61,213 nucleotides of DNA, filler included, from 4 parts of 4 records of this genome joined end to end with filler, not necessarily neighbours in it, one strand, 5' to 3'; shown: positions 28,348 through 47,167, counted from the whole stretch's first letter. Made by a program: numbers and translations. The notes: generated by a model not told the origin, from the sequence alone.

Positions 28348-28570
28348 TTCTACTCTGTTTCCCACGACAGCCCCGTCTGGAGGCAGGCCGATGCAACGAA
28401 CGAATGAGCCACATTGCCAATCACCATCGTTCCACCCAACAAGGTTCGAAGGGTCGACACAGCAATCCCCCGAGCAGAAGGTTGCTGGCAATTGACAGTT
28501 ATCAGACTTCGGCGAGCTCATTGTCTCGTACTTGCTGGGGAGCCCAATCGCCCGCTGCGATTGACTGTGA

Positions 28571-28897
28571 TCACGACAACTCTTTTTTCAGCTTTGCGTC
28601 GGCAGCGTTCATTTCGTCCTGCGACTTGAATTCGACCACGATCGTCTTCAGCCGAGAGGTTTCGCCGGCGACGATCGCAACACGGCCCTTGCTGACGCGC
28701 AACCATTTCGCGAGCGACGCGATGACCGCTTTGTTGGCTTTGCCATCTTCCGGCACCGTGTGAACCGACACTTTCAAAGCCCCATCGTGCAGTCCACCCA
28801 CCGAAGCCTTCTTGGCTTTGGGAGTGACCCGCACGCGAAACCTCCATGTCAAGCCATCGCATTGTCGATCCAGTCCTGCTCCTGGCTCGCTCATCAC
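28571..28897 (-). CDS. DUF167/YggU-family protein
   Basis: RVRVTPKAKK, PEDGKAN and GETSRLK; ATGA overlap with the putA stop. Confidence 0.88.
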   Translation of the reverse strand: MMSEPGAGLDRQCDGLTWRFRVRVTPKAKKASVGGLHDGALKVSVHTVPEDGKANKAVIASLAKWLRVSKGRVAIVAGETSRLKTIVVEFKSQDEMNAADAKLKKELS

Positions 28898-31800
28898 TCA
28901 GCATCAGTTGGCTGTGACAACTTGGCTGATCGACGTCCAAGGTTGCCATAGCGGTGATAATCATGCGAGATCGATTGCTCGTTCAGGTATCGCAAGCATT
29001 CAATGCGTCCGTGATCCACCACTGGTTCATCAATCACCGTGATGAAGCGGCGTCCGCAAGCTCGACGAATCGATTCTTTGGCGTGGGTCAGCGTACGCAT
29101 TCGGCTAACACCACCGCCTTCGATTCGCTCGATCAACTGCTCCACGGATTCTTCGATGGGATCAATCAATCCGGGCAACCAATCGGCGGTGGTTTCCAGC
29201 ATCGCCGACTTCGACCGATCCAGCTCAGGTGACAGTGAAAGCGTGAACTGGGTGCCCACGCAAACCGCCGCCGAGATCGCCACGATCGCATCCACAATGT
29301 CGTCGTCCTTCTCGATTCGAATCGTCATGCCATCGACGGATCGATAACGACGAATATTGTCTTGGCCGGTCAATCGATAGGTGTCGTGTTCCAACGCGAA
29401 ATCAGTTGCATTGGCGATTTCTTGCGACGTGATCGCTCGTTCGATTCGGAACTTCTGACCATCGCCCAACATCTCGTCGGAATAGCGACCACGCTCGATC
29501 CAATCCCGCATCCGATCGAGCTGGTCGTGCGAAGCTTCGACTTCGTCCGTCGGTGGTGTCCAATCGCTCGCATGTGTGACCTTGGAAAGGGCAAGCACAT
29601 AATTTGGACCGCCGGCTTTGATACCGGGACCGTAGGCGGACAGACCGACTCCGCCAAACGGTTGCCGCAACACGATCGCGCCGGTCGTTGGACGATTGAT
29701 GTAGAGGTTGCCAGCAGGAATGGATTCTCGCCACAATTTGATTTCTCGATCGTCCAAACTTTCCAGTCCGCTGGTCAACCCATAACCGGTCGAACGCACG
29801 ATTTCGATCGCTTCTTCCAGTCGACCAAATCGCATCACACCCATCACCGGTCCAAACAACTCGGTCGTATGAGTGAAGCTGCCCGGTTGCACGTCCCATT
29901 TGACGCCCGGCCGGTACAACGTTGGGTTGCCATCGACATGCTCGGACATCACCAACCAAGATTCGCCACCCTCGAGTTCTTGCAAACCACGTCGCAGTTT
30001 GTCGGTTGGCGGATCGACCAACGGGGTCACGCGGGTATGCAAATCCCAAGCGGATCCCACCGGCAGACTGCGAACCGCGTCGGCCAAAATTTCTCGGAAT
30101 TCCGGATCGTCGAACACTTCGTTTTCGAGCAACAACAGCGACGTGGCACTGCATTTTTGTCCGCTGTGTCCAAACGCCGAATGCAACACGTGTTTGATCG
30201 CCAGGTCACGGTCCGCCATCGCGGTCACGACCGTCACGTTCTTACCGCCTGTTTCGGCCAGCAAGTGAAGATCCGGCCGCACGTCCAGCATTCGCTTTGC
30301 GGTTGATGTACCGCCGGTCAGAATGACGGTGTCAACGATTGGATTCTTGACCAACCACTCTTCCGCAACTTCGTCGTCACAGATCACAAACTGCAAAGCA
30401 TCACGCGGAACACCTGCGTCCCAGAATGCCTGGCACATCAGCCACGCCGGCAACAAAGTTTGCATCGATGGTTTGACAACCACCGGGTTTCCCGCTGCGA
30501 TCGCGGCTGCAATTCCGCCACATGCGATCGCCAAAGGAAAGTTCCATGGCGTGATGACGGCGACGACGCCGCGTGGTTCACACCGGATCCCATCGCACTC
30601 GTCCCAAGCCTTCATGGTCAGCGGATAGAACTCCAGAAAGTCAATTGCTTCGCTGACTTCTGGATCCGCCTCAGCAACCGTTTTGCCTGCTCCGGCCACC
30701 ATGCTGCCGATCCAATCCCCACGTCTTTCGCGAGCCAATTGCGCGACCGAACGTAGGACTGAATAACGCTCATCAACAGATAGATCCGCCGCCCAGGTCG
30801 ATTCGCTGGATGCTCTGACGGCGGATTCAACTGCGGGCGAAGTTGCTTTCTTGTAACGACAAGTCACGACGCCGGGACGCGAGACATCGTCGGTGGTGAA
30901 CCATTCCGCTGAAACGCGATCGTCTCCGTCCAGCGAATCCACGTCGGGCAAACCAACCAGCACCGGCGTCACACGAGTTGCCTGCTCGTCACAAAGTGGC
31001 TTCCAACGATCCAGTGTTTCTTGTGCCCACTTCGAATTGTGAGGCAGCGACCAATCGGTATCGGGTTCATTCACGAACTGCGTCCAATGCTCCGCCGCGG
31101 GCGGCTGCACGGGAGTCTGGTATCGATTCTGGTTTCGTCGAGGCTGCACCGAAACCGTTTCGCAATCCATCAACGCGTCCTTGAACCGTCCCGCCAACAA
31201 TTCAAAGTCGGGTGAGTCCGGCTGCAATCGATACGCATGACGCAGGAAGTTCTCAGCGCCGGTGTTTTCATCCAAGCGGCGAATCAAATACGTGATCGCA
31301 TGCAAGAAATCTGATTTTTTGCAAGCTGGAGCGTACAACAACATCGCCGCGTCTCGTTCCGTCAACGCCCGGCGTTGATGATTGGCCATGCCCTCCAGCA
31401 TTTCGAACTGGACCGAATCCGAGGCTCCCGATCGCTGAGTCCAAATCATCGCCAGCGCCACATCAAACAAGTTGTGCGACGCGACACCAACGCGAATGTT
31501 CCCATCCGCAGCAGCACTGATTAGCTCCCTGAGCATGCGTTTGAAGTTCGCATCCGTATCGTGCTTGTTCGTGTACGGAGCCAGCGGCCATCCACCAACG
31601 GACGCGTGCACGCGTTCCATTTCGAGGTTTGCACCTTTGACCAAACGGATCGTCAACGGAGCACCGCCACCGGCGACTCGCTTCGTCGACCACTCAATCA
31701 GGTCTCGCATGACTAAACAAGAATCTGGCACGTAGGCTTGCAACGCGATCCCAGCTTGAATGGAATCCAGATCATCGCGTTCCAATGTCTCACGAAGCAC

Positions 31801-32607
31801 GTCCGCGGTCAGATACAAATCGCTGTACTCTTCCATGTCCAAGTACACGAACTTGTCTTTGGCCTTGGAACCATCGTCCATGTGGTTGGCGTTGCGATAC
31901 AAACGCTCCAAGCGATCGGCGACCATGCGAATCGTGTGTTCTCGTGCCAGCGGAGACACTTGGCTGTAGAGCGTGGTGAGTTTGACCGAGATGCAACGCA
32001 CCTCGGGCATGCGAAGCAATTCGTAGAACGACTGCATCCGCTTTCGCGTTTCGTCGTCACCCAGCAACGCTTCGCCGAGCAGGTTCACATTCATCGCCAC
32101 GCCGTGACGCTGGCGAGATGCCAAGTGCGGAGTCAAAAGATCCGGTTCTGCTGGCAAAATCACATTGGCCGTTTCACGGCGCATCTTTTCTTTGACCAAC
32201 GGCACCGCCACGCCGGGCAGATACTCGCCAAAGGATTGGAACCCTTTCAGCATGGCCTGTTCGACCGGACTGAAGAATCGCGGAATGCCTTGCAGATCCA
32301 ACAAGTGGGTCATCTGGTCCGCCACACGGGCCGGCGTGTGCGTGCGAAACGCCTGGTCGGTCATCTCGACCAAAGTCGCTTTGTCGGCATCGTGGCCGAT
32401 CATTCGGTCCAGTTCCGATTGCTGGCGACGTTCCTGGGGTGTCTGCAATGCACGCGACTCTCGCAAAAGATCAGCCGCCATCTCAATCGCGGCAGCGGCA
32501 TCTTGCTCGGGGTCAAACCCCTTCCATGTTGACGACAAGGTTGAGTCGGGCTGATTCAAGACAAGATCCTTCACAAGAGATTCTGCGGAAACGAAGATCG
32601 AGGACAC
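28894..32607 (-). CDS. putA: Bifunctional proline dehydrogenase / P5C dehydrogenase (no evident N-terminal RHH)
   Basis: NLLGEA, LDMEE, RLVKGA, ASHN and YLIRRLDEN (PRODH); PWNFPLAI, ETGGKN, GQKCS, ELFGP and QPFGG (ALDH). Confidence 0.95.
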   Translation of the reverse strand: MSSIFVSAESLVKDLVLNQPDSTLSSTWKGFDPEQDAAAAIEMAADLLRESRALQTPQERRQQSELDRMIGHDADKATLVEMTDQAFRTHTPARVADQMTHLLDLQGIPRFFSPVEQAMLKGFQSFGEYLPGVAVPLVKEKMRRETANVILPAEPDLLTPHLASRQRHGVAMNVNLLGEALLGDDETRKRMQSFYELLRMPEVRCISVKLTTLYSQVSPLAREHTIRMVADRLERLYRNANHMDDGSKAKDKFVYLDMEEYSDLYLTADVLRETLERDDLDSIQAGIALQAYVPDSCLVMRDLIEWSTKRVAGGGAPLTIRLVKGANLEMERVHASVGGWPLAPYTNKHDTDANFKRMLRELISAAADGNIRVGVASHNLFDVALAMIWTQRSGASDSVQFEMLEGMANHQRRALTERDAAMLLYAPACKKSDFLHAITYLIRRLDENTGAENFLRHAYRLQPDSPDFELLAGRFKDALMDCETVSVQPRRNQNRYQTPVQPPAAEHWTQFVNEPDTDWSLPHNSKWAQETLDRWKPLCDEQATRVTPVLVGLPDVDSLDGDDRVSAEWFTTDDVSRPGVVTCRYKKATSPAVESAVRASSESTWAADLSVDERYSVLRSVAQLARERRGDWIGSMVAGAGKTVAEADPEVSEAIDFLEFYPLTMKAWDECDGIRCEPRGVVAVITPWNFPLAIACGGIAAAIAAGNPVVVKPSMQTLLPAWLMCQAFWDAGVPRDALQFVICDDEVAEEWLVKNPIVDTVILTGGTSTAKRMLDVRPDLHLLAETGGKNVTVVTAMADRDLAIKHVLHSAFGHSGQKCSATSLLLLENEVFDDPEFREILADAVRSLPVGSAWDLHTRVTPLVDPPTDKLRRGLQELEGGESWLVMSEHVDGNPTLYRPGVKWDVQPGSFTHTTELFGPVMGVMRFGRLEEAIEIVRSTGYGLTSGLESLDDREIKLWRESIPAGNLYINRPTTGAIVLRQPFGGVGLSAYGPGIKAGGPNYVLALSKVTHASDWTPPTDEVEASHDQLDRMRDWIERGRYSDEMLGDGQKFRIERAITSQEIANATDFALEHDTYRLTGQDNIRRYRSVDGMTIRIEKDDDIVDAIVAISAAVCVGTQFTLSLSPELDRSKSAMLETTADWLPGLIDPIEESVEQLIERIEGGGVSRMRTLTHAKESIRRACGRRFITVIDEPVVDHGRIECLRYLNEQSISHDYHRYGNLGRRSAKLSQPTDAE

Positions 32608-32713
32608 GAGGTTCGCCGATCAACCATTGACGGCTAAACTTTCGCAACTTGCAACCGCCTGTTTTCACAACGATTTCTTTATGGCATTCCGCCGCGACCC
32701 AAAGACGCCTGCA

Positions 32714-33106
32714 ATGACGACTGATTTGCCGCAACATGTGTTCCGTTTACGAGTTCGCTACGACGAATGTGATCCGATGGGACTGGTTCATCATTCAAAT
32801 TACTTGCGATATTTCGAAATCGGACGAACCGAATTCCTTCGATCGTCGGGGGGCCGGTACCGTGAAGTGGAAGAAGCGGGGCTGTATGTCGTGGTGGTCC
32901 ACATCGATTGTCGCTATCGTGCCTCCGCACGTTATGATGATGAAATTGATATCGTGACGAGAATCGCCAAAATCACCGCGGCCAAAATCATCCATGAATA
33001 TGAGATCTGCCGCGGAGACGAGGTGCTCGTGCAAGCGACCGTGACCTTGGCGGTGATAGATAAGAACGGTCGATTGCAACGTGTTCCTGAAGCATTGTTG
33101 ACGTAA
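32714..33106 (+). CDS. YbgC/FadM-family acyl-CoA thioesterase
   Basis: RVRYDECDPMGLVHHSNYLRYFEIGR hotdog motif; start uncertain (32681 or 32714). Confidence 0.88.
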   Translation: MTTDLPQHVFRLRVRYDECDPMGLVHHSNYLRYFEIGRTEFLRSSGGRYREVEEAGLYVVVVHIDCRYRASARYDDEIDIVTRIAKITAAKIIHEYEICRGDEVLVQATVTLAVIDKNGRLQRVPEALLT

Positions 33107-33141
33107 AGCTCTTTGACTCTTTCCTTCCTGGTGCCCTCCCA

Positions 33142-34191
33142 ATGCGTCCTGACCAACCTACCCGATCGCTCAGCAACCGCCGCCAATTCCTTCGTCGCCT
33201 TGGAATCACATCCGCCGTCGGCTACGCCGCTTATTTGGCTCATCAAGTGAGTCCTTCACCACTGATCGTCAATGGTTTGCCGGGGCAGGGCAGGGCACTT
33301 TGGGCCGAAGAACTCAGCGAATCTAAAACGGAAACCAGCACTGGTTATCTCAAGCAATCTCTGAAAGCCGGCATGATTCGGGCCGGGAAATCCGACGCAG
33401 CCAACCCTTGGATCGAACGGTTTCGAATTGCCAAGGATGCCGGCTTTGAAGGAGTCGAACCCAACACGTCACCCGGTATGGATGTCAAAGCGATGGTCGC
33501 CGCCTCGGCGGAAACCGGTTTGACGATTGACGGAACCGTCGGCGGATATCACTGGGGTACAACGCACACCAGCCCCGATGCAGCGACTCGCAAGAAAGCA
33601 CAGCAATTGCTCGAGGAGTCGCTGCAACAAACCGCCGACTTGGGCGCCAACACGTTCCTGATCGTTCCCGGCCACGGCAAAGACGGCACGGCCGAAGAAG
33701 TCCGCCAACGTGCTTTCGAAGCTCTTGATCGCGCCGTTCCCCTGGCCGAGAAGCTTGGCGTCAAAATCTTGATCGAGAACGTTTGGAATCACTTCCTCTA
33801 CGACCACGGTGGGGACGAAAAGCAATCGGCTCAACCACTCGCAGACTTCGTTGACTCGTTCAACACATCGTGGATTGGCGTCCAATTCGATCTTGGCAAC
33901 CACTGGAAGTACGGCGATGTGGCCGAGTGGGTGAAGACATTGGGGCATCGCATCGGAAAGCTTGACATCAAGGGATTCTCGCGCGAACAGGGACGCTTCA
34001 CCGACGTCACCGAAGGCGACATCGATTGGGCAAGCGTCCGAAAGGCACTTGCTGAGATTAAGTTCGAAGGCTGGGTCGCGGCGGAAGTCGGTGGCGGCGA
34101 TGCTGAACGACTGAAGAAGATTCACGGCCAAATTGAAACCGCTTTGCACTGCTCAAAATCGCTTTCACAAATCAAGGCGGAGACCGCGTGA
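33142..34191 (+). CDS. Sugar-phosphate isomerase/epimerase (xylose isomerase-like TIM barrel) with Tat signal
   Basis: NRRQFL twin-arginine motif; GFEGVE, IENVWN, FDLGN, DIK, GDIDW and AEV metal-site motifs. Confidence 0.85.
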   Translation: MRPDQPTRSLSNRRQFLRRLGITSAVGYAAYLAHQVSPSPLIVNGLPGQGRALWAEELSESKTETSTGYLKQSLKAGMIRAGKSDAANPWIERFRIAKDAGFEGVEPNTSPGMDVKAMVAASAETGLTIDGTVGGYHWGTTHTSPDAATRKKAQQLLEESLQQTADLGANTFLIVPGHGKDGTAEEVRQRAFEALDRAVPLAEKLGVKILIENVWNHFLYDHGGDEKQSAQPLADFVDSFNTSWIGVQFDLGNHWKYGDVAEWVKTLGHRIGKLDIKGFSREQGRFTDVTEGDIDWASVRKALAEIKFEGWVAAEVGGGDAERLKKIHGQIETALHCSKSLSQIKAETA

Positions 34192-35165
34192 CGGCGTCGC
34201 AACCACTGGACCAAGCCGACCAAGACTCTGAATCATCCTCCGCAGGTTCATCCGCCGCGGAGACAGAACACGTCAGCGTGATGCCAAATGAGATCGTGCA
34301 ATGGGTTCGAGAAATCAACCCGACCACGATCATCGATGGGACCTACGGTGGCGGTGGGCACACACGTTTATTGGCTGACGTTTTGGCCGGCGCGGGTTCC
34401 GACTCAGACACTCCACGTGTGATTGCGATTGATCGTGATCCCGCCGTTGTTCGTCGGGATGAACAAAAGTCTTGGATCAAAGATGATCCGCGAATCGAGC
34501 TGTTCCTGGGCAGCTACGAAAGCTCGCCCAAGGCACTCGATGCGTTGGACCTGACGCACGCGGATGCGTTGGTGCTGGACCTTGGTCTTTCCAGTGATCA
34601 ACTTGCCGACAGGAATCGCGGCTTCACATTCACGATTGATGACGCGGAATTGGATCTTCGTTTTGATCCAGAAAACGGAGTACCAGCGTACCGGTGGCTG
34701 CAACAACACAGCGAAAAAGAAATCGCCGACGCAATCTATCAATTTGGTGAAGAACGATTCAGTCGCCGCATCGCCAAACAAATTTTCTTGCGGGCTCGCG
34801 AGCGCAACCCTGTCACCAAAGTCGGTGAGTTGGTGGAGATCTGTCGCCGCTGTGTGCCTCGTTCACGCAACCATGACATTCATCCCGCGACGCGAACGTT
34901 CCAGGCGCTGAGGATCGCGGTCAATGATGAGCTCGGCGGATTGACCCGAACGCTTCAATCCGCTCCCGACTGGATCGCTCCCGGTGGTCGAGTCGCGGTG
35001 ATCAGCTTTCACTCCTTGGAAGACCGCATCGTCAAAAATGCTTTCCGTGAGGATCACCGATGGGAAATCCTGACGAAGAAACCGCTGCGTCCAACCGACG
35101 AAGAGGTCCAAGCGAATCCTCGCAGCCGCAGCGCGAAACTACGCGTCGCCAAACGAGTGGAGTGA
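34188..35165 (+). CDS. rsmH: 16S rRNA m4C1402 methyltransferase
   Basis: HVSVM, DGTYGGGGH, DLGLSS, HPATRTFQALRIAVN, SFHSLEDR and NPRSRSAKLR; GTGA overlap. Confidence 0.96.
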   Translation: MTASQPLDQADQDSESSSAGSSAAETEHVSVMPNEIVQWVREINPTTIIDGTYGGGGHTRLLADVLAGAGSDSDTPRVIAIDRDPAVVRRDEQKSWIKDDPRIELFLGSYESSPKALDALDLTHADALVLDLGLSSDQLADRNRGFTFTIDDAELDLRFDPENGVPAYRWLQQHSEKEIADAIYQFGEERFSRRIAKQIFLRARERNPVTKVGELVEICRRCVPRSRNHDIHPATRTFQALRIAVNDELGGLTRTLQSAPDWIAPGGRVAVISFHSLEDRIVKNAFREDHRWEILTKKPLRPTDEEVQANPRSRSAKLRVAKRVE

Positions 35166-35248
35166 ACACGGCAACCCGTAGCACGTTGGTCCCGAACGTG
35201 AATCCGCTCGTCTCGGTGAAGGACTATCGAGCAACAGTTCGAAATGCC

Positions 35249-36223
35249 TCATTCGCCTCGAGAAATTAGCCAACCTTCCGGCGGTGGTGGTAGGGCGAAT
35301 GCGTTGTGATAGTCTCGCTGGCGCATCTCGATCCAAAACAATGTCTCTTCGGCAAGTGACTTGTTCACCGGCGAGAACGCCGACCAGCGAACCGCCTCGG
35401 TCACTCGCTCTTTTGCCACGGTGAAGTCTTGTCGTGCTGCCGCGGCGATTGACGCGTTGATGAGTGCTGCCGCATTGCGTGGGTGCGATTCCAACACTTG
35501 CTGCCAACGATGCTCCGCCGCCGGCCAATTGCTTGATCGGGCCAATTCGTTTCCACGTCGAATCGCTCGACTGCCTGGAGACAATCTCGGCGAAGCCAAT
35601 GTCACTTGTTGCCGATCAACGCTGGCGGCGAGCAGTCGTTTGGTTTCCAGAACAACCGCTCGGCGTGTTCGTTCAGCGACATCGGGAATATTCAACAGAT
35701 GCGGATACCGTTGCGAGATCAGCGCCTCGTCGACTGAAACCGGCATCCCAGCCGATTCTGCATCGACCTGCAGTCCAGTCAATCGCCAAGACAGACTGAC
35801 TTTATCGTCGCGATCCTCGTGACCGGTAGCCTGCAGAATTTCACCATGCAGCAGATAACGCAACCCTTCGCGTCGAGCGGCCGCGCTGACTGCCATATCG
35901 TTGGGTTCCTCTTCGAAACCTGAAACGAGGCGAATGTTCGCTGGGCTTTCCAGTTGCTCCGCCGCGATCAATCGCCAACGCGAGGGCTGGTCCGCTAGCA
36001 GAGCATCCTCGATCGGTTCGGCCCACTCGTCAGGCCCTGAGATGCCCATGAAAGCGACTCCAGCGGGCTCGACGGCCAGCTGTGGCGGTTGCCAAACGTG
36101 GACTGGGGCGGTGGTCTTGCAGCCAGTCAGCAAAATCCAGCAGGCGCACACCCCTAACCAAGCACCTCGGGACACCCAAGGTGAGGGCCAGCGTCGCTCG
36201 ATGGGAATCGCCGAGCCTAGCAT
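35249..36223 (-). CDS. Hypothetical lipoprotein with C-terminal TPR-like helices
   Basis: Likely start ATG 36223 gives a signal peptide with lipobox LTGC; the longer listed ORF would overlap the opposite gene. Confidence 0.65.
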   Translation of the reverse strand: MLGSAIPIERRWPSPWVSRGAWLGVCACWILLTGCKTTAPVHVWQPPQLAVEPAGVAFMGISGPDEWAEPIEDALLADQPSRWRLIAAEQLESPANIRLVSGFEEEPNDMAVSAAARREGLRYLLHGEILQATGHEDRDDKVSLSWRLTGLQVDAESAGMPVSVDEALISQRYPHLLNIPDVAERTRRAVVLETKRLLAASVDRQQVTLASPRLSPGSRAIRRGNELARSSNWPAAEHRWQQVLESHPRNAAALINASIAAAARQDFTVAKERVTEAVRWSAFSPVNKSLAEETLFWIEMRQRDYHNAFALPPPPEGWLISRGE

Positions 36224-36383
36224 GCAGAAAATTTGCTTCCTTTCGAACACGAACCGGATCCCCGCGGAAAGGGACCCGAAGCGGACGGTAGCCAAACAGA
36301 GCGTCTCGCGGCAAGTTATCTTGTGTGAACTAGACTTAGAAACTGTCCGTGAAACTCGTTCTCGCCCCACGTTGATTTTTTGT

Positions 36384-38255
36384 ATGGCTTCGTTGTTCGT
36401 CATTCGAGGACGTGACCAAGGAAAACACTTCCAGCTCGCACCGACGGTCACGCGACTGGGACGTGAATCCAGCAACAATGTGCAGTTACTCGACAACGAG
36501 GCTTCGCGAAGCCACGCCGAAATTCGCGGTGACGGGACGGGGCGTCGTTACGAACTGGTCGACCTAGGCAGCAGTAACGGCACACTCGTCAACAATCGCA
36601 AGATCACACGGCACGTACTGACCAGCGGCGACCGAGTGGAGATCGGTTCGACGCTGCTGATTTTCACCGGCACCGGCAACGTGTCGGCTCTCGATGCGGC
36701 TCACGGCGTCGACATCGTTCGGCAAGTCCGCGGGGGCGATGCCAGCAACATTGTTTCTTCGTTGTCCCGCGAAGGCGTCGTCTCGCCATACACACCAGGC
36801 GGCTCTTCGTCCAACGCACCGCCGATCGACAAACCCGCGACTTCACCGACGACTCTGCCGCCACCAATCCCGCCACCTGTCGAAAATCCCCCGACGCCAT
36901 CTGAGGACGAAAGAGTCGATTCCTCGGCTTCGGGTTCTGATTCACTTGGTCAGTTCCACGGACCGCCTGTCATCGGTCGACTCGATGCAGACCGTTCACT
37001 GGAAGTCATGTACTTGACCGCCATCGCGGTGGGACGAACCGATGACTTGGATGAGGTGCTGGACCGTGTTCTCAAGCTAGTCTTTGACTGGGTCGAAGCC
37101 GATCGCGGATGCATCATGCTTCGCGACCCGGAATCCAAACGACTGACCCCGGCCGCTCGCTGCGATCGCGAATCAGCGACCGGTGGAACAAAACAAAACC
37201 CTTCATCCAAAACACAAGACCGTATCCAAATCAGCCATACGATTTTGGATTACGTGCTGCAACACAAACAGGGCGTTCGCACAAACGACGCACTCGATGA
37301 CGAACGATTCGATTCCGCCGCTTCGATTGTCCAAGGCGGCGTTCGCGAAGCCCTTTGCGTTCCCTTGCAGGGCCGATACGAAATCGTTGGCATGTTGTAT
37401 GTCGACACTTACACCACACCAGGAGAACTGGTCCGCAAGGGTGGCGCGACGCGATTCCATGACGAACACCTACGGCTGATCACCGCCGTCGGACACCAAG
37501 CCGCACTCGCGATCGAAGACACGTTTTATTACTCAGCACTCCTGCAAGGCGAACGACTGGCCGCGATGGGCCAAACGATCGCGACGCTTTCACATCACAT
37601 CAAGAACATCCTTCAAGGCGTTCGAGGCGGCAGCTATCTGATCGAATCAGGTCTGCAAAAAGACGACACCGATGCGATCCGCCGGGGATGGTCCATCGTT
37701 GATCGCAACCAAGAACGAATCAGCAATCTCGTGCTCGACATGCTGACGTTCTCAAAGGAACGCGAACCAGATCTGCAGGAAGGCAATCTGAATGAAGTTG
37801 TCAGCGACGTGGTCGAACTCATGCAGAGCAGGGCAGGGCAGAGCGAGATTGAACTGGTTTCCGACCTGGATGCCACATTGCCAATCGCCACCTTTGATAG
37901 CGAAGCGATTCACCGAGCCGTCCTGAACTTGGTCACCAATGCAATCGATGCCGCCACGAAAACAGTTTTGGTCAAAACGTTTTACGATGCGGCGCAAGGC
38001 TGGATCGTCGATGTGGAAGACGATGGCGAAGGTGTTCCCGAAGAAGACCGTGAGCAAATCTTCTCGCTCTTTGAGTCCAAGAAAGGTGCACGAGGCACGG
38101 GCCTGGGTTTGCCCGTCAGCGCAAAAGTGCTGCGTGAACACGGAGGCACGTTGACCGTCGACGATGCGGCAAGTGGAGGAGCCCGTTTCCGAATGATCTT
38201 GCCGGCCACCGGCACCGATATCAACGAACTCTCACGCAGCGAAACCCAAGCGTAG
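36384..38255 (+). CDS. FHA-GAF sensor histidine kinase
   Basis: FHA motifs LGR, SRSH and SSNGT; Pro-rich linker; GAF (ALCVPL...GMLYVD); H-box SHHIKN, N-box NLVTNAIDA, DDGEG and GTGLGL. Start at ATG 36384. Confidence 0.9.
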   Translation: MASLFVIRGRDQGKHFQLAPTVTRLGRESSNNVQLLDNEASRSHAEIRGDGTGRRYELVDLGSSNGTLVNNRKITRHVLTSGDRVEIGSTLLIFTGTGNVSALDAAHGVDIVRQVRGGDASNIVSSLSREGVVSPYTPGGSSSNAPPIDKPATSPTTLPPPIPPPVENPPTPSEDERVDSSASGSDSLGQFHGPPVIGRLDADRSLEVMYLTAIAVGRTDDLDEVLDRVLKLVFDWVEADRGCIMLRDPESKRLTPAARCDRESATGGTKQNPSSKTQDRIQISHTILDYVLQHKQGVRTNDALDDERFDSAASIVQGGVREALCVPLQGRYEIVGMLYVDTYTTPGELVRKGGATRFHDEHLRLITAVGHQAALAIEDTFYYSALLQGERLAAMGQTIATLSHHIKNILQGVRGGSYLIESGLQKDDTDAIRRGWSIVDRNQERISNLVLDMLTFSKEREPDLQEGNLNEVVSDVVELMQSRAGQSEIELVSDLDATLPIATFDSEAIHRAVLNLVTNAIDAATKTVLVKTFYDAAQGWIVDVEDDGEGVPEEDREQIFSLFESKKGARGTGLGLPVSAKVLREHGGTLTVDDAASGGARFRMILPATGTDINELSRSETQA

Positions 38256-38495
38256 GGGCAGTTAGAACGGCGTGAAGGACATTCGAAGACTGATGATCCC
38301 CCCAATTCGATTGTCCACACCCGGGCGAGCCTTTTCATCGGGGAATTGAGAGAACGACTTCCGCTCCTTGCTTCCAAAAGCAACACGCGGATGGTGCAAT
38401 TCATCAGTTCAGGCTTCGTTCAACACCTCGTTGGGTGCCATTGCAGGCTGCCGACACATGAGCCCACCATTCCGATTCCAGCACCAGTGTTCGAT

Positions 38496-38524
38496 TTGGC
38501 AATTGAATACGGGAAAGTTACACT
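38496..38524 (+). promoter_or_regulatory. Sigma70-type promoter for the small protein/protease pair
   Basis: TTGGCA-N17-TACACT (5/6 and 4/6 matches to TTGACA and TATAAT); GGAG RBS at 38553-38556. Confidence 0.6.
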
Positions 38525-38563
38525 GCTGTGGGCCGATTGGACTCAACACGCCGGAGCCGAACG

Positions 38564-38845
38564 ATGAAAACACGACGATTATCACGCGAAGAGATCGGTA
38601 GTCGTGGCTCTGAGATCTATGAAACGCAATTGAAAAAACTGCTTGAACAAGGCTCGCGAGACCAGTTCGTTGCGATTGATGTAGAAACCGGTGACTATGA
38701 AGTGGCGGATGAAGCTCATGCTGCTGGAACACGGTTGCGCCAGCGTCGTTCCGATCCACAGGTCTTCATCGCCAAGGTCGGCCATTCAGCTGCATTCCAC
38801 GCCCTGAGGCTTACTGGCGGTGACGGGATCGAGCGGAATGATTGA
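38564..38845 (+). CDS. Small uncharacterised protein (DUF5678-like), 93 aa
   Basis: RBS plus ATG; GSEIYE, FVAIDVETGDYEVAD and FIAKVG patterns recalled from small proteins encoded next to aspartic proteases. Confidence 0.75.
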   Translation: MKTRRLSREEIGSRGSEIYETQLKKLLEQGSRDQFVAIDVETGDYEVADEAHAAGTRLRQRRSDPQVFIAKVGHSAAFHALRLTGGDGIERND

Positions 38846-39209
38846 AGGCAGGATCGACAATAACGTTGAAGCCTTCGTTGACTTAGAGATTCAACTTGAC
38901 GACACGACCCACACGATCGCTTTCTTGGTTGATACTGGTTTCAATGGATTCCTCTCGATACCATTCCGCTTGGTTCACCAACTCGGCTTGCCATTGTCGG
39001 ATGTTCAGCAGGGCGTGACCGCCGACGGACGCTCAAGCTTCTTCGACACGGTTGAACTGACCGTGATCTGGCATGGAAATCCGCTGACCGTTCAAGCCCA
39101 AGTACTCGACGAACCCTTGCTCGGAACGAGGCTTCTGCGCGGTTCCAAAATAGAAGCCGCTTGGATTCAGGGTGGGATGTTTCAAATTGAATTGATTTTA
39201 GATGGCTGA
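38838..39209 (+). CDS. Clan AA (retropepsin-like) aspartic protease, AF_0612-like, 123 aa
   Basis: FLVDTGF catalytic motif, TADG flap and PLLG closing motif; 8-nt overlap with the upstream ORF. Confidence 0.85.
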   Translation: MIEGRIDNNVEAFVDLEIQLDDTTHTIAFLVDTGFNGFLSIPFRLVHQLGLPLSDVQQGVTADGRSSFFDTVELTVIWHGNPLTVQAQVLDEPLLGTRLLRGSKIEAAWIQGGMFQIELILDG

Positions 39210-39669
39210 TCTTTTGTGATCGTTGTTGCAGAGCTTCACAGAATGGAAGTCAAAAAACAGGAGTGGAACAACAATTCGGCATTCACCCTCAAACCTTTTT
39301 CGATTCCAGCGCTTGGTTTGATGCGACTCTTAAACCCGTTCGGACCAGCGAGCTGGATCGAATCGATCGCTCGACCTAGGACAACAATCAAGGCAAGGGT
39401 GAGCGGATAATGATCCATCCAAGGGAAATGCGAAAGCAATCAGTCAAGACGATGAATGAACTTGGATTGGTTTGCCTTTTAGGCTGAGCGATCAGGGCAA
39501 GATGCTTTTCCTGTACGAGCCTACGTGATTCGAAAGCGTCGTCATGCACTTAGTTGAATCTCGAGCAAAGAGGCATGGGGTAACGTAGTTCTTAATACCT
39601 AGGACTATTGTCATACGTTGATTCGCTGACGTTTCATGAGCGAGACATTCCGGTCAAGTTGAGATGCCG

Positions 39670-40515
39670 TCACTTAAACTCCAACGAGTCAAAGAACTCC
39701 GATGGCTTGTCCAATTCACTTTCGTTGGATCGTGGCTTGCGTTGGCCGCCAACCAGATCTTTGATTTCGGAGTACGGCGAGTACACCGCGACCACAAGAT
39801 TTCGATTGTGAACGTAGATTTCGCAGTCCGACCCTTCGATCGCTCCCACACCTGATTGCATGGTCCCCGCCATTCCCTCCACACCAGATCGGGTAACGGG
39901 ACGAGGATTCGACAGACGGATTCTCATGTCTCGCAACAATTCCGCGATGGGAATGTTCGGATCGATGACAGCCGGCAAATCAGCCACCACTAGTGAATAC
40001 TGAGATCCGGTTTCTTTCCTCCGGCCGGTGAGCTCATGAACGGTCGTGCCTGGAAACTGCTGCGACTTGTCTCTCCGGTCTTCACCCGCAGGCATGCTGA
40101 CGGTGTAGCCCTTGTACGTCACCGATGTCCAACCGCTATGACGCGACCCCAAATACCCAACGGCAAAGATCCCGCCGGCGCACAACAAGATGCACAACAG
40201 GCCAAGCCCCGCGATCGTGCTGATGATCTTCACAGCAGCCTTGGATCCACCACCTCGCTTTTTCGCGGGCTTGGGCGGTTGGTAAACGGTGACCGGTCCC
40301 GAGGGACGAAAGACTGAGCTCGGCGGTGCCGCTGCCGAAGAACCTAAACTGGGCAGGTTATCAAACAGATTTTCTTCGGGAACATGGACCGTCACAGGCG
40401 CCCGAACTGCAAGCATCAACTCACACTTTGGGCACTTCACTTTTCCTGCGCCCATCGTCGCGGGAATCTGCAAAGTGGTTTTGCATTGAGGACACACAAT
40501 CCGACGTCCGGCCAT
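39670..40515 (-). CDS. Zinc-ribbon bitopic membrane protein, hypothetical
   Basis: CPQC-x16-CPKC N-terminus, Pro/Ser-rich linker, one TM helix and a C-terminal extracytoplasmic domain. Confidence 0.75.
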   Translation of the reverse strand: MAGRRIVCPQCKTTLQIPATMGAGKVKCPKCELMLAVRAPVTVHVPEENLFDNLPSLGSSAAAPPSSVFRPSGPVTVYQPPKPAKKRGGGSKAAVKIISTIAGLGLLCILLCAGGIFAVGYLGSRHSGWTSVTYKGYTVSMPAGEDRRDKSQQFPGTTVHELTGRRKETGSQYSLVVADLPAVIDPNIPIAELLRDMRIRLSNPRPVTRSGVEGMAGTMQSGVGAIEGSDCEIYVHNRNLVVAVYSPYSEIKDLVGGQRKPRSNESELDKPSEFFDSLEFK

Positions 40516-40675
40516 CGAAACTCCCGCGGTTCATCATCGAGCAATGAGCGGGAAAAAGTGTCACATACTTTTGATGCAAAGCACGCAGCAGGCCGTTCCG
40601 GCAAAAAGCACCTGACACTTTCTCCCAACCGTTCTTCGACAGTGATGCAACAGTTGGATTGGCCCGTGTGCCAGT

Positions 40676-41668
40676 TTACCCCAGCGCGACGGCGAGTGCT
40701 TCTCGAACGATGGGCAGAACTCGGTCTTGGACCTCATCCAACGTGCCTTCCAAAAAGGCTCCCGCGGCAGCTTTGTGGCCACCGCCGCCAAATTGACGAG
40801 CGACCTCGTTGCAATCCAAGCTGCAACGACTCCGAAAGCTCAATTTGAAACCACCTCGCACTTGCCCGACGAAGATTACACCGGCTTGGGTGCCACGAAT
40901 GGCCAACGTCAAATTGATCGCGTCCTCGGTGTCATTGGGTTGCGCGCCACACAACTCAAAGTCTTCTTTGTTGACCGATGTATAAACCAACGCCCCATCC
41001 ATCTCGGTGGTCGTTCGAGACAGAATCAGCCCGCGAAGTTTCAGCCGGCCGATCGTGTCACGTTCATACAGATCGCCGTAGACTTCGCTGGGAACGACAC
41101 CTGCATCGATCAAACGAGCGATCGTGCGGTATGTGTCCGATGTAACGCTCGGGAACCGGAACCATCCCGTGTCGGTCGCGATGGCAGCAAACAAAGGCGT
41201 CGCCATCGTTCGCGTCAGTGGAACATTCAGTGCATCGGCGGCTTGAACGACCAAATGACCTGTCGCTTCGGATTGGTAGTCCTTGTACATCCTCGCACCC
41301 AACTCATCTTCACCCACGTGGTGATCCAGCACCATCTTGTCGGCGCGAGACGCACGGATGACATCGCCCATGTCCCCAAGCTGAGCCCATGCGCTGGTGT
41401 CGAGAATCATAATGCAGTCCGCTTTCACATCTTCGGCCTCCACTGAATCGCCCAACACCTCGATGTTGCCAGCGGGATCCAAGAACGACAAAGCCGGCGG
41501 GGTCCGGTGAGCATTGATGATGCGAACATCCTTCCCAACCGCTCGCAGGACTTCTGCCATTCCCAATTCGCTGCCTAATGCATCGCAGTCGGGACGAATA
41601 TGGCTGACCAAAACGAACGATTGGTAATGTTGAATTTGATCAACAAATGCTTTCCAGTTAACTCCCAC
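40676..41668 (-). CDS. nrnA: DHH-family phosphoesterase (NrnA-like oligoribonuclease/pAp phosphatase)
   Basis: HIRPDCDALGS, ILD, LDHH, TDTG, SFRS and GGGHKAAAG. Confidence 0.9.
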   Translation of the reverse strand: MGVNWKAFVDQIQHYQSFVLVSHIRPDCDALGSELGMAEVLRAVGKDVRIINAHRTPPALSFLDPAGNIEVLGDSVEAEDVKADCIMILDTSAWAQLGDMGDVIRASRADKMVLDHHVGEDELGARMYKDYQSEATGHLVVQAADALNVPLTRTMATPLFAAIATDTGWFRFPSVTSDTYRTIARLIDAGVVPSEVYGDLYERDTIGRLKLRGLILSRTTTEMDGALVYTSVNKEDFELCGAQPNDTEDAINLTLAIRGTQAGVIFVGQVRGGFKLSFRSRCSLDCNEVARQFGGGGHKAAAGAFLEGTLDEVQDRVLPIVREALAVALG

Positions 41669-41683
41669 GAGCGGGTCTTTCTT

Positions 41684-42655
41684 TCAAGGTCGAGATTGAA
41701 GAGATGAAACCGTCTCACGAACGGTTTGCAAATCGATTTGCAATTGTTGTTTTAGGGCGGACGCGTCGGCGAACTTGATCACGCCCCGAACTTGACTCAC
41801 CAAAGTCAGCGACAACGATTTCCCATAAAGATCGCCATCATAGTCGAGCAAGTGGGCTTCGATCTTTGTCTCTTGGCGTTCGTTGAACGTTGGGTTCGGA
41901 CCAATGTGAACCGCGGCGGGATGATTGGTCGGTCCATCGCATTCATCTCCGCACGCCAGCGCCGCGTAAACACCGTGCTCAGGAAGCAAGGTCGTCACGC
42001 CGCCCAAATTCGCGGTGGGAAATCCCAATGTACGGCCGCGTTGTTCACCGGTCGTCACCACACCGGTCAGACGGTAGCGACTGCCGAGCATTTGATTCGC
42101 CAAGACGATATCACCTGATGCGATTGCTTCGCGAATGCGTGAACTGCTGACCATGCGTTCGTCGCGAACCGATGGAACCACGATCTCGACGTCAATTTGA
42201 CGCTCCGCAGCCAACTCTTTCAAACGAGTTGTGTTGCCGGCACGATCGCGTCCAAAGAAAAAATTCGGGCCTTCGATGATCGCCTTGGCTGACAACTGTT
42301 CCACAATCAATCGCTGGAAGAATTCTTCGGCGGTTTGATTCAAAAAATCGCGAGTGGCCTCGCAAACCAGCAAATGATCGATCCCCGAACCGGACATCAA
42401 CTCCGCCCGACGCGACAAACTGGTCAAACTGGGTGGTGCCCCGTGTGGCCGCAGCACCGATGCTGGGTGCGGATCCATCACGATTGCGATTGCTTTACCG
42501 CCAACCCGCTGAGCATGCCATCGGACACGTTCGAGCAAAGCACGGTGTCCCAAATGAACCCCATCAAAATTGCCGATACTGACCGCACCACCCTGAAGCG
42601 ATAGATGCAGGTCGGAGTCGCCCGCAAGGTCGCTCAAGTGGATCAGGGAAGTCAT
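41684..42655 (-). CDS. ribF: Bifunctional riboflavin kinase/FAD synthetase
   Basis: GNFDGVHLGH, VSSSRIR, GRTLGFPTAN, GVY and EAHLLD. Confidence 0.96.
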   Translation of the reverse strand: MTSLIHLSDLAGDSDLHLSLQGGAVSIGNFDGVHLGHRALLERVRWHAQRVGGKAIAIVMDPHPASVLRPHGAPPSLTSLSRRAELMSGSGIDHLLVCEATRDFLNQTAEEFFQRLIVEQLSAKAIIEGPNFFFGRDRAGNTTRLKELAAERQIDVEIVVPSVRDERMVSSSRIREAIASGDIVLANQMLGSRYRLTGVVTTGEQRGRTLGFPTANLGGVTTLLPEHGVYAALACGDECDGPTNHPAAVHIGPNPTFNERQETKIEAHLLDYDGDLYGKSLSLTLVSQVRGVIKFADASALKQQLQIDLQTVRETVSSLQSRP

Positions 42656-42773
42656 TCAAACGGAGCAGGGCAGGGGAGAGGCAAAAAGAAACGAACAGAT
42701 TGGCCTCAGTATGCCTGATTCACCTCGATTTCGTCAGATCCCATGGCGGGGCGCAATCTTTGATTCAGTGGCT

Positions 42774-43688
42774 TCAGTCCGCAGGCTGAGTCATTTCATC
42801 CGCGACCAAGGCCAACGCATCCAGTGCATGCAGAGAAGTCATGCCCGCGTGACTCCATCGGGACGCCGCCTCGTCACCACAGCGACCATGAATCCATACA
42901 CCCAACTTCGCCGCATCGGGACCGCTCAAACCTTGCCCAAGCAACGATGTCACGATGCCGGTCAACACGTCGCCGCAGCCCGCCGTGGCCATCCCTGGAT
43001 TGCCCGTTGTGTTCTGCCAAACCTGCTTTCCTCCGTCCCCATTTTGATACGCAACGTGTGACGGTCCACCTTTTACAACGATGGTCAAACCCAATCGACA
43101 CGCCAACTCTGCCGCGGCTTCGACTTGGGCATCGACATCCTTCGCAGACGCTCCCGTCAAACGCTGCAGCTCACCAGGATGTGGCGTCAGAACGCACGCG
43201 GCATCGGCCTTGCTTCTTTCGAACCGGCCATCTGAAAACCAATCGTTTTGAGCGATGATGTTCAACGCATCCGCATCCAAAACCAACGGCAGATCCTTTT
43301 TCGCGAGCAGCCCCTCCACGATCGTCGCCCCACCTGGTCCCGTCGTCATGCCGGGTCCACAACCGATGGCCGCCTGAGCTGACAATCGATCCTTCAACGA
43401 CTGCCACGCCGGATCGGCAAACTTCTCCCCGTCATCGCCCAGCCCAATTGTCATCAGCGCCGGATGAAAACCGGCTACACAATCCAGAATGCAATCGGGA
43501 ACCGCTGCCGCCACCAAACCCGATCCCGTATGCAGTGCAGCGATCGATGACAACGCGATCGAGCCCGCCATGCCGCGTGAGCCACCGATCAACAAAACGC
43601 GACCAAAATTGCCTTTGTGAGCCGATGCTTCGCGATGCGGAATCCGCAGCGGCGGCGGGCTGGTAGACTGAGTCTCAATGGATGGCAT
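42774..43688 (-). CDS. nnrD: ADP-dependent NAD(P)H-hydrate dehydratase (stand-alone)
   Basis: [30 protein letters not shown] and [10 protein letters not shown]. Confidence 0.93.
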
Positions 43689-43748
43689 TTCAGGCTCGCA
43701 GGTTGATTGTTTGTCACACTAAGCAGGTCGGCAGGAATGATCGGGTAG

Positions 43749-43848
43749 NNNNNNNNNNNNNNNNNNNNNNNNNNNNNNNNNNNNNNNNNNNNTTAATTAA
43801 TTAANNNNNNNNNNNNNNNNNNNNNNNNNNNNNNNNNNNNNNNNNNNN
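43749..43848. other. Artificial contig linker
   Basis: N44-TTAATTAATTAA-N44. Confidence 0.99.
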
Positions 43849-44846: not shown

Positions 44847-45521
44847 TCAGGCTGGTTGCAGTTGATCCAGCGCAGATTCGAACAGACGACGTCCGTCAAC
44901 GCCGCCATGGGCCGGTTCGATCAGATTTTCCGGGTGCGGCATCATTCCCAGAACGTTTCCGGTTTCGTTGACCAGTCCGGCAATGTCGTTGATTGATCCA
45001 TTTGGGTTTGTTCCGTCTGCATAACGGAATACCACCTGGCCAGTGCCTTCAATGGTCGAAAGCGTTTCTGCATCAGCGAAATAGTTACCATCATGATGGG
45101 CCACCGGGCAGCGAATGACTTCGTCGGCGCCGTAACCACGGGTAAAAGCTGTTTGATTGTTTGCAATGCTGAGGCGCACTTCGCGGCAAACGAACTTCAA
45201 CGAAGCGTTGCGCATCAGTGCACCGGGCAGCAGGCCTGTCTCCAGAAGGATTTGAAAACCATTGCAAACGCCGATCACACGCACACCTTTCGCAGCCTTT
45301 TCGGCGACTGCGCGCATAACCGGCATGCGCGCGGCAATCGCACCGCAGCGCAGATAGTCACCGTAGGAGAAACCGCCGGGAATGACGATCAGGTCCACGT
45401 CCGGAAGTTCTGTTTCCGTTTGCCAGACCGTGATGGGTGCTACGCCGGAAATCAGAGAAATGGCGGCATGCATATCGCGATCGCGGTTCAGGCCAGGAAG
45501 CTGGATGAGTGCGGTTTTCAT
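44847..45521 (-). CDS. purQ: FGAM synthase glutaminase subunit
   Basis: [18 protein letters not shown] and MPHPE. True start is ATG 45521 ([10 protein letters not shown]). Confidence 0.96.
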
Positions 45522-45546
45522 GTGTCTGGCAACCTTTTTGAAGCGC

Positions 45547-45789
45547 TTAGGAAAGCTCGACAGTGTAATCTTCGATAACCATGTTAGCGAGGAGCTTTTC
45601 GCACATCGCCGCTGCGTCGTTCTTTGCCTTTTCCCGATCATCGGTATCGAACCTGATGTCAAATACCTTGCCTTGCCTGGCTCCGGTGATGCCCTCAAAT
45701 CCCAGTCCCGCCAGAGCGCCTTCAATTGCTTTTCCCTGCGGGTCAAGAACGCCGTTCTTCAAAGTCACAATCACGCGTGCGTTGATCAC
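45547..45789 (-). CDS. purS: FGAM synthase subunit PurS
   Basis: [16 protein letters not shown] and MCEKLLAN. Confidence 0.96.
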
Positions 45790-45805
45790 TGATCCAGTCC
45801 TTCCG

Positions 45806-46570
45806 TCATTTCACGAGTACCGGTCCGGCAGCGCGTGCCGGTTCGTTTTCATTCATAATTCCAAGTCTTCGCGCAACCTCTGAATAGGCACGAAACAGAT
45901 CGCCGGAGTTTGTTGCCGCTGCGTCGCGATCAAGCCGCTCATGCGTCAAGATGTCCATAAGCCTGCAGGAGTCGGGTGAGATTTCGTCAGCGAGGATGAT
46001 GCGCATCATGTCGCCTTCGTAAAGACGGCCACATTCTATCTTGAAGTCCACAAGCTGAATACCGGCGCCGAGAAAGAGGCCGGTGAGAAAGTCATTGATC
46101 CGGATGGCAAGCGCCATGATGTCATCCAGCTCCGGCGGCGTGGCCCAGCCAAACGCTGTAATATGTTCTTCGGTCACAAGCGGGTTTTCAAGTTCATCGG
46201 CATTCAGGTTGAATTCGACGATGGATCGGGGCAGTGGTGTGCCTTCTTCGAGGCCCAGCCGCCGAGCCAGAGAGCCAGCCGCAATATTCCGCACCGAGAT
46301 GATCAACGGAACCATTTCAACTTCACGCACAAGCTGTTCGCGCATGTTCAGGCGTCGAATGAAATGGGTGGGGATGCCGATCGTGTTCAGGTGGCCAAAC
46401 ACATATTCGGAAATACGGTTGTTCAGCACACCCTTTCCGTCAATGATTCCAGCTGCACCCTTGCCGGCGGAAAAGGCATCATCTTTAAAAAACTGTATCA
46501 GCGTTCCCGGTTCCGGGCCCTCATACATGATTTTGCCTTTGCCTTCGAAGACACGGCGGCGACGACTCAT
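45806..46570 (-). CDS. purC: SAICAR synthetase homolog with altered active-site residues
   Basis: [34 protein letters not shown] and [10 protein letters not shown]; operon position. Several catalytic positions are changed (see findings). Confidence 0.9.
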
Positions 46571-46837
46571 TGTTGATCTCTTAAAAACGGGCGCACCCTA
46601 AGAAAGTGCGCGGTCAAGTTCCATATCCCCCCGCATAGCGAATAAGCGTGGGTTTCTCAATCAGGCGGATCTGCTTTTCATCGTTTACCTTCGCAAAACC
46701 ACACTGATCATGCATCTTACACTAAATCGTGTTCAAAATTTAATCGAATAAATTCAACAAATCGAATTATGCGACTTTTCAAAGTTCAATTTTAAATCCA
46801 TCATTTTTGATAGAGGTCAGCTTTGGAGGAGGTGCCG

Positions 46838-47167
46838 ATGACGTCAACCATTCTTTCAGATCGCGAACGGGCCTTTGAAGCAGCGTTCGTTCAGCAGGAG
46901 GCGGCTCGGTTCCGGACGGTTGCCCGACGTAATCGTATGCTTGCGGCATGGGCTGCTGATTTGCTCGGACGTGAAGATGCTGATGTATTTGCCAGTGAAG
47001 TTATTGCTGCCGATTTTACACGGACCGGCGAGAACGATGTTGTGCGGAAATTGATGCATGATTTTGAGGTTGCAGGGATTGTCATGGAGGAAGAAGTGCT
47101 GCGGCTGAAGATGCATTCACTGATGCAGGCAGCCAGCCAGCAAATGGATGGCAACCGGCAAAACTGA
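46838..47167 (+). CDS. DUF1476 protein / F1Fo ATPase inhibitor zeta subunit
   Basis: DRERAFE, ARRNRMLAAWAA and DVVRKL; strong GGAGGAGG RBS before ATG 46838; divergent from purC. Confidence 0.85.
   Translation: MTSTILSDRERAFEAAFVQQEAARFRTVARRNRMLAAWAADLLGREDADVFASEVIAADFTRTGENDVVRKLMHDFEVAGIVMEEEVLRLKMHSLMQAASQQMDGNRQN

Follow-up and report, generated by a model that had tools for sequence, protein, structure and literature searches.

PurC is usually treated as a plain housekeeping enzyme, and descriptions of its substrate contacts are available for human PAICS and for E. coli PurC. In human PAICS, Glu97 and Asp137 bridge MgB and MgC, the Mg ions that hold the CAIR carboxylate, while aspartate is bound by Thr40, Lys191, Lys228 and Arg232, and ATP is contacted by Lys19, Asn43 and Lys131 (PMC9376930). 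In E. coli PurC, ADP is contacted by E179, and CAIR by S100, R94, R199, D175 and R215 (PMC3261824). E. coli numbers for the human positions, as used below, are those that we infer from motif spacing.

In the literature searched we found no description of a PurC pseudoenzyme; the nearest case, as far as the available part of the source goes, is that of the second purC-like genes of Thermococcus, extra copies suspected of being inactive or of having another function (PMC3261824). These are C-terminally truncated archaeal paralogues located near purO/purP. A further point of comparison is the trypanosome AdoMetDC "prozyme", an enzyme homologue reported to lack catalytic residues and to be maintained by selection in a genome that also encodes an active version (PMC5201418). 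The protein described here, PurC1, resembles the prozyme in each of these respects, and resembles the Thermococcus genes in being an extra copy suspected of inactivity or of another function. Unlike the Thermococcus copies, PurC1 is full length, is the positional orthologue of a canonical gene, and shows point losses of metal and aspartate ligands. It differs from the prozyme in that PurC1 and its presumed active counterpart, PurC2, belong to different structural subtypes, and that the degenerate PurC1 persists in some genomes without any active PurC match.

The window, meaning the whole 61,213-nt stretch of DNA that was analysed, is not one stretch of a genome but consists of four pieces, unrelated to one another, with paired 44-N spacers between them (Table 1); its GC content rises at 28 kb, from 31-40% to 52-57%. 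The piece that carries purC1 is collinear with contig 13 of genome G104, at 75-81% nucleotide identity. The preceding piece (28348-43748) is 98% identical to a different genome, G001, across all 15401 nt, and has no match in G104. We rejected G001 as the nearest genome for purC1, since it matches only that unrelated piece; this 7.1-Mb genome encodes only a long-type PurC and has no match to PurC1 of the window.

As the original prediction had it, purC1 is a full-length open reading frame with neither frameshift nor internal stop, and it stands at the head of a purCSQ operon: purS and purQ come after it on the same strand, and both products score above their NCBIfam cut-offs. The purC1 stop codon is separated from purS by 16 nt, and purS from purQ by 25 nt. 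The PurQ motifs GVCNGFQ and MPHPEN are invariant in an alignment of the genus to which G104 belongs. A GC-rich hairpin and, after it, a CCAAC-like motif lie about 20-30 nt ahead of the purC1 start. Hairpin and motif recur upstream of degenerate and canonical purC1 genes alike (leaders L100-L123 and L002-L081), with stem sequences that, by eye, vary among species. Searches with Rfam gave no family at gathering score in 28000-61213 and none at E<=1 in 46540-46860, and RNAalifold on 24 purC1 leaders gave no consensus structure, the hairpin being out of register in the alignment.

Table 1. Features of the window and loci of the purC1-like genes in two reduced genomes
Feature	Position	Strand	Description
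purC1	45806..46570	(-)	254-aa short-type SAICAR-synthetase homologue; 254 codons uninterrupted
purS	45547..45789	(-)	80 aa, GTG start; NF004630 104.5 bits vs cut-off 75
purQ	44847..45521	(-)	224 aa, start MKTALIQ; NF002957 329.7 bits vs cut-off 212
purC1 leader	46571..46800	(-)	promoter-like site 46795-46766; GC hairpin 46611-46591
ATPase inhibitor subunit zeta gene	46823..47167	(+)	PF07345 98.5 bits; divergent neighbour of purC1, context only
ClpA/ClpB-type AAA protein, C-terminal 269 aa	43862-44671	(+)	AAA_2, ClpB_D2-small; cut by contig join at 43848
Paired 44-N spacer	14112-14155/14168-14211
Paired 44-N spacer	28248-28291/28304-28347
Contig join	43749..43848	(.)	paired 44-N runs (43749-43792/43805-43848); purC1 piece = 43849-61213
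Reduced-genome locus L144	G117:C1:1070000-1084000
Reduced-genome locus L145	G216:C4:10000-24000

PurC1 is a homologue of the SAICAR_synt family in both sequence and fold. The protein matches PF01259 (Pfam SAICAR_synt) over residues 7-235 with 196 bits against a cut-off of 20, and 3kre_A matches it with an E value of 7.9e-64. An AlphaFold (AF2) model built from a 76-row alignment has a pLDDT of 89.6 and is low only at residues 36-39 and 243-254; an 18-row alignment of near-identical sequences gave a pLDDT of 34.3 and was discarded in favour of the larger one. Superposition of the model on solved PurCs yields TM scores of 0.86-0.89 (0.89 to 3kre) and r.m.s.d. values of 1.6-2.8 Å, and its fold is that of E. 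coli PurC (2GQR/2GQS), 3KRE, 2YWV, 3NUA, 2YZL and 4FE2. The last of these, which was among the structures superposed, has AIR bound according to its structure title.

PurC1 does not reach the TIGR00081 equivalog cut-off (165.6 bits against 189.9, with a match that stops at residue 211), and neither do two other members of its clade, P0009 (186.2) and P0004 (169.1). Agrobacterium tumefaciens PurC1 (P0017) passes with 227.2 bits. This protein is 75% identical to PurC1 of the window and shares its length of 254 residues, its purC-purS-purQ position and its conserved C-terminal tail, which ends in GPVLVK, but unlike it has T33, N36, E90, K123, D129, W205, K215 and R219.

We read residue changes by hand-count from a HMMER alignment to E. 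coli PurC (2gqr_A). The E. coli motifs that the original prediction had quoted (vpvecvvrn, flkndamhdp, rlwd and dkdrfr) agree with that alignment, which also contains every substitution it had listed, at E90, K123, D129, RLWD, K211 and R215. Both acidic metal ligands, E. coli E90 and D129, are absent and are replaced by I90 and N129. The aspartate binders K211, R215 and loop Thr of E. coli and the gamma-phosphate contacts K123 and loop Asn are absent as well, and the corresponding subsite in PurC1 reads R215, A219, F33, G36 and N123. In the aspartate-site helix the full set of changes is K211 to R215, R213 to A217, F214 to A218 and R215 to A219 (window numbering second), and W201 is changed to M205. 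Five aligned solved PurCs have Glu90, Asp129 and a helix of the DKD-R-F-R type where PurC1 has Ile, Asn and DRDAAA. By contrast with these losses, the ATP/MgA site (E. coli K11, K13, K177, E179 and D191, the last being D195 in the window) is complete, and so is the site for the ribotide phosphate and ribose (R94, S100, D175 and R199, the last being R203). The predicted retention of GKxK, R94/S100 and R199 is thus borne out by the alignment, and none of nine ATP, MgA or ribotide contacts is changed.

The same positions stand out against close relatives. In a canonical reference set of 80 rhizobial PurC1 orthologues, drawn from among the matches listed, T33, N36, E90, K123, D129, W205, K215 and R219 are each found in 80/80. 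The loop that reads DDAFSAG in PurC1 (F33, G36), instead of the usual rhizobial DDATAFN, is DDATAFN-like in all 80 of these listed orthologues, in agreement with the original prediction. At least 97% conservation is seen at 171 positions of this set, and PurC1 deviates at 23 of them: at all 7 positions of the MgB/MgC, gamma-phosphate and aspartate subsites, versus 16 of the 164 others (Fisher p = 3e-7, for a list of subsite positions fixed from the earlier claim and the literature, and so partly post hoc).

To place PurC1 among its relatives we used a protein survey of 121 sequences, made up of the query and 120 listed matches. The top matches listed are two metagenome proteins with 93% and 86% identity, and these lists also hold proteins of Martelella endophytica, mediterranea, radicis and alba at 79-83% and of Agrobacterium at 75%. 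Among the matches listed, both E90 and D129 are missing from 10 of the 121 sequences (P0001-P0010), and 12 further proteins show conservative differences elsewhere. At the genome level, our sample of the GTDB family around G002 comprised 401 genomes, of which 400 were scored. A match is present in 396 of them, one of these being flagged as unpublished, and identity to PurC1 of the window exceeds 77% only in G104 (94%), G365 (84%), G289 (83%) and G207 (79%).

The degenerate short copy is a property of the whole nearest genus, which is that of G104 and is Martelella-like: it occurs in 14/14 genomes, each with two PF01259 matches, a long-type one at 233-241 bits and the degenerate short one at 190-223 bits. 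Together with the window, these genomes give a clade of 15 sequences. Position 90 is I in nine, V in five and A in one, position 129 is N in 15/15, L122 is likewise invariant, and position 123 is divided between K (8/15) and N (7/15). R219 is kept in 2/15 only, the basal pair G207/G410. K11, K13, H69, R94, S100, D175, E179, D200 and R203 are present in 15/15, D195 in 14/15, and position 177 is K in 13 and R in 2. On a tree, 18 degenerate sequences fall on one side of a single branch (SH-aLRT 100; stem 0.12+0.094), and, once G207/G410 have split off, there is another long internal branch (0.14). This fits a two-step loss in which the metal ligands would have gone first and the aspartate helix later.

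More distant relatives vary at these positions too. Among 150 representatives of 50%-identity clusters (P0132-P0271), those most similar to PurC1 of the window, the E90/D129 pair is present in 84, 12 are gapped at one or both positions, and 54 have something else at one or both, a group in which some are fragments or possibly misaligned. Many of the 54 are full-length alpha-type proteins, 40-55% identical, that keep E179, D195 and R203.

A gene that has lost its catalytic residues might be expected by the original prediction to show dN/dS near 1 if it were decaying, and this is not what we see, the values for PurC1 being 0.035-0.11. Across the degenerate copies, Nei-Gojobori dN/dS has a median of 0.107 (87 pairs, dS 0.1-2), compared with 0.129 (88 pairs) for PurC2 in the same genomes; as NG86 dS is saturated above about 1.5, the ratios of distant pairs are rough. 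Between the window and G104, PurC1 has dN 0.043 and dS 1.23, a ratio of 0.035. Identity to the window across the genus is 79-94% for PurC1, 80-90% for PurQ and 68-90% for PurS. PurC1 is under purifying selection and is not decaying.

Constraint is not uniform along the protein. In the loop at residues 32-42, pN/pS is 0.62 in the degenerate copy versus 0.09 in canonical orthologues, and in the helix at 207-224 it is 0.63 versus 0.26, while over the remaining approximately 225 residues it is 0.117 versus 0.132. This shows that only the elements in contact with aspartate and the gamma-phosphate are relaxed, and, together with the skew of deviations toward the metal and aspartate positions, it upholds the earlier claim that damage is concentrated there and is not general decay.

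The original prediction had supposed that a second PurC carries out the chemistry, and in the nearest genus this is what the genomes suggest: all 14 encode, beside the degenerate PurC1, a long-type PurC2 that scores above the NF009251 cut-off. PurC2 is of the yeast Ade1/Mycobacterium abscessus PurC type and belongs to the same Pfam family as PurC1, but it is about 320 residues long, lies outside the purCSQ operon, and has the motifs PVEIIVRG, TPTSKA..GHDEP, ADTKYEFG and FDKDFIR intact. In G104 it scores 489.7 bits with NF009251 against a cut-off of 371, and every motif is intact relative to yeast Ade1. PurE and PurH are present in 5/5 genus genomes tested. For the organism of the window itself there is an indirect hint of a PurC2: two sequencing runs, X1 and X2, contain all sampled words of window positions 44847-46570, and they also contain two contigs (10.5 kb; 3.1 or 9.9 kb) that run collinearly along the PurC2 locus of G104 with 80-90% likeness but, the samples being mixed, are not assignable to this organism.

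Possession of PurC2 does not by itself go with a degenerate PurC1. Only 18 of 101 sampled family genomes have PurC2 above the cut-off, and in the 15 of these for which PurC1 coordinates were obtained, PurC1 is fully canonical in 14, so redundancy alone seldom kills PurC1. The remaining one, in G016 (L150, G016:C68:17331-18092), is canonical but for E90G. Two metagenome PurC1 proteins among the matches listed (P0053 and P0090) have E90Q alone and are otherwise canonical. Such single changes may mark the beginning of the same inactivation, or they may be errors of sequencing.

By following the low-scoring genomes of the family sample, we reached six reduced genomes (1.0-2.0 Mb) of the same family that also carry a degenerate PurC1. 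Three of them (G369, G108 and G211) have PurC2 as well, and G369 and G108 also have PurE, PurH and PurS. The other three (G117, G216 and G007) give no PF01259 match besides the degenerate PurC1, and the profiles used detected neither PurE nor PurH in them. A degenerate purC as the sole copy in a purine prototroph, which the original prediction had named as counting against it, was thus sought and not found.

The gene content of G117 and G216 is informative about where PurC1 might act. PurD, PurN, PurM, PurL, PurQ, PurB and ThiC were found in both, and PurF scores 335 and 358 bits against a cut-off of 350. PurS was not found by profile search, although purQ and purL pass their equivalog cut-offs, and searching with PF01259 yielded no further PurC, whatever the type. 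The purine pathway of these genomes apparently stops at AIR and is kept for thiamine. The genes are ordered purB, a PF06821 serine hydrolase gene, purC1-like, purQ, purL, with the purC1-like gene intact and a gap of 5-7 nt between it and purQ. The two PurC1-like proteins are 58.5% identical to each other (pN 0.27, pS 0.74); the corresponding identities are 51.6% for PurQ, 46.8% for PurL and 65.7% for PurB.

In G007 the degenerate copy is more eroded (136.9 bits, with an insertion) and has no adjoining purS, purQ or purL; PurF and PurN give only weak, partial matches, and profile searches gave no match for PurD or PurM. An obligatory link of PurC1 to PurLQS is therefore disfavoured. A PF06821 serine hydrolase gene lies upstream of the degenerate PurC1 in G117, G216 and G007, unlike the PF07345 gene found there in the window.

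When the trait columns were removed from the alignment, the tree had 3 changes between the degenerate and canonical labels, a number that is unsure because of long branches, with at least 2 forced by well-supported branches. The sequences thus indicate that there are independent degenerate PurC1 lineages in reduced genomes of the family. None of the 21 degenerate sequences (15 of the clade and 6 of reduced genomes) retains E90; all of them have R94, S100 and D175, and either R or K at position 203. The independent lineages have I/V/A, Q, K or R at position 90, and N, C, Y, K or D at position 129. Some of these lineages have lost MgA ligands as well, by E179K in G108 and D195S in G369, so what they share may be something other than ATP binding.

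Loss of the catalytic residues combined with strong conservation points to a second job for PurC1. We put the probability that PurC1 no longer makes SAICAR and is selected for another purpose at roughly 70%; migrated or substitute catalytic residues are conceivable. On this reading, the gene would be the positional orthologue (purC-purS-purQ) of the short rhizobial PurC1 in which SAICAR catalysis has been lost, PurC2 would make SAICAR, and purifying selection would keep PurC1 as a pseudoenzyme with its fold, its ATP/MgA pocket and above all its 5'-phosphoribosyl pocket (R94, S100, D175 and R203) preserved.

Binding would explain the retention of the ATP/MgA and ribotide contacts, and so, equally, would other ATP-dependent chemistry. 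PurC1 might be an enzyme of changed specificity that binds ATP-Mg and a phosphoribosyl substrate and carries out a phosphorylation, or a ligation of a different acid and amine, in a remodelled pocket. The clade's near-complete retention of K11, K13, K177 (13 K, 2 R), E179 and D195 (14/15), its ribotide contacts (15/15), and the invariance of N129 and L122, which could mean that the former metal site has come under a new constraint, would all suit such an enzyme, and it has been noted that some PurC-like proteins might perform related chemistry (PMC3261824). However, the would-be pocket, formed by the loop and the helix with pN/pS of 0.62-0.63, is the least constrained part of the protein and contains indels; position 123 is mixed; and the independent degenerate lineages share no replacement motif, some being without MgA ligands too. 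We regard a changed specificity as unlikely.

It is much less probable still that PurC1 is a working SAICAR synthetase that uses other metal and aspartate contacts and is simply redundant with PurC2. The full-length reading frame in its operon and the conserved promoter-like leader are what a working gene would have, and the canonical PurC1 of 14/15 other two-PurC genomes shows that such redundancy is tolerated. Yet E90 and D129, which are found in 80/80 orthologues among the matches listed and in the five aligned solved PurCs, are both lost here, as are K211, R215, T33 and N36; TIGR00081 scores fall below the cut-off; and the degenerate copy stands as the sole PurC only in genomes that gave no PurE or PurH match. 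Simple decay after a takeover by PurC2, in a gene as yet undisrupted, would account for stem branches that are faster than those of canonical orthologues, but the low dN/dS (about 0.1), a conservation as strong as that of PurQ and PurS in the same genomes and the intact model fold rule it out for practical purposes, the gene being intact in 15/15 clade members, three further metagenome proteins and strongly reduced genomes, with constraint outside the two relaxed elements equal to that of active orthologues.

For a PurC1 that is catalytically dead yet under selection, a possible if tentative role is a non-catalytic one, in which it would act as a ribotide-binding protein (AIR/CAIR-type) of the early purine branch, from PRPP to AIR, including the FGAM synthetase PurL/Q/S. 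Its function would most likely run through the 5'-phosphoribosyl pocket, because that is the sole ligand site preserved in every degenerate lineage, and this pocket should be able to hold AIR, since 4fe2 is a solved PurC with AIR. The early branch is suggested because only that branch remains in G117 and G216, and the gene sits there. A putative association of PurC1 with PurLQS has support from gene adjacency, in the operon of the window and in the short spacing to purQ in the two reduced genomes that gave no PurS match; a predicted complex of PurQ, PurS and PurC1 returned scores of 0.00 and 0.00, which is no answer and speaks neither for nor against.

A more specific and still more doubtful version of this role is that PurC1 of rhizobia serves the PRPP-to-AIR branch in a second, non-catalytic way, strongly enough to be kept once SAICAR synthesis has passed to PurC2 and even once the whole path from AIR to IMP is gone. 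In G117 and G216 it might then replace PurS or handle AIR, for example by shielding it or by passing it to ThiC or PurE/K, and the copy in the window would be its free-living, experimentally tractable form. An assembly centred on PurK, PurE and PurC has been proposed for E. coli and P. aeruginosa (bioRxiv 10.1101/2025.07.15.664858); a scaffold role for PurC1 in such an assembly is compatible with the Martelella-like genomes, but not with the genomes that lack PurE.

What is new here is a probable pseudoenzyme derived from a well-known enzyme, PurC, and its wider significance hangs on the second function. The proteins of the clade are all named "phosphoribosylaminoimidazolesuccinocarboxamide synthase" in their source records; if our reading is true, the PurC annotation would be mistaken throughout a genus and in several reduced genomes, and metabolic reconstructions that count the degenerate purC1 as step 7 would be misled. 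That the degenerate PurC remains constrained even where no SAICAR step is detectable implies that short PurC proteins have a hidden function, for which ribotide binding, metabolon scaffolding and support of FGAM synthetase are candidates. Such a function would bear on possible bacterial purinosome-like assemblies with a PurC core, of the kind outlined in the same preprint.
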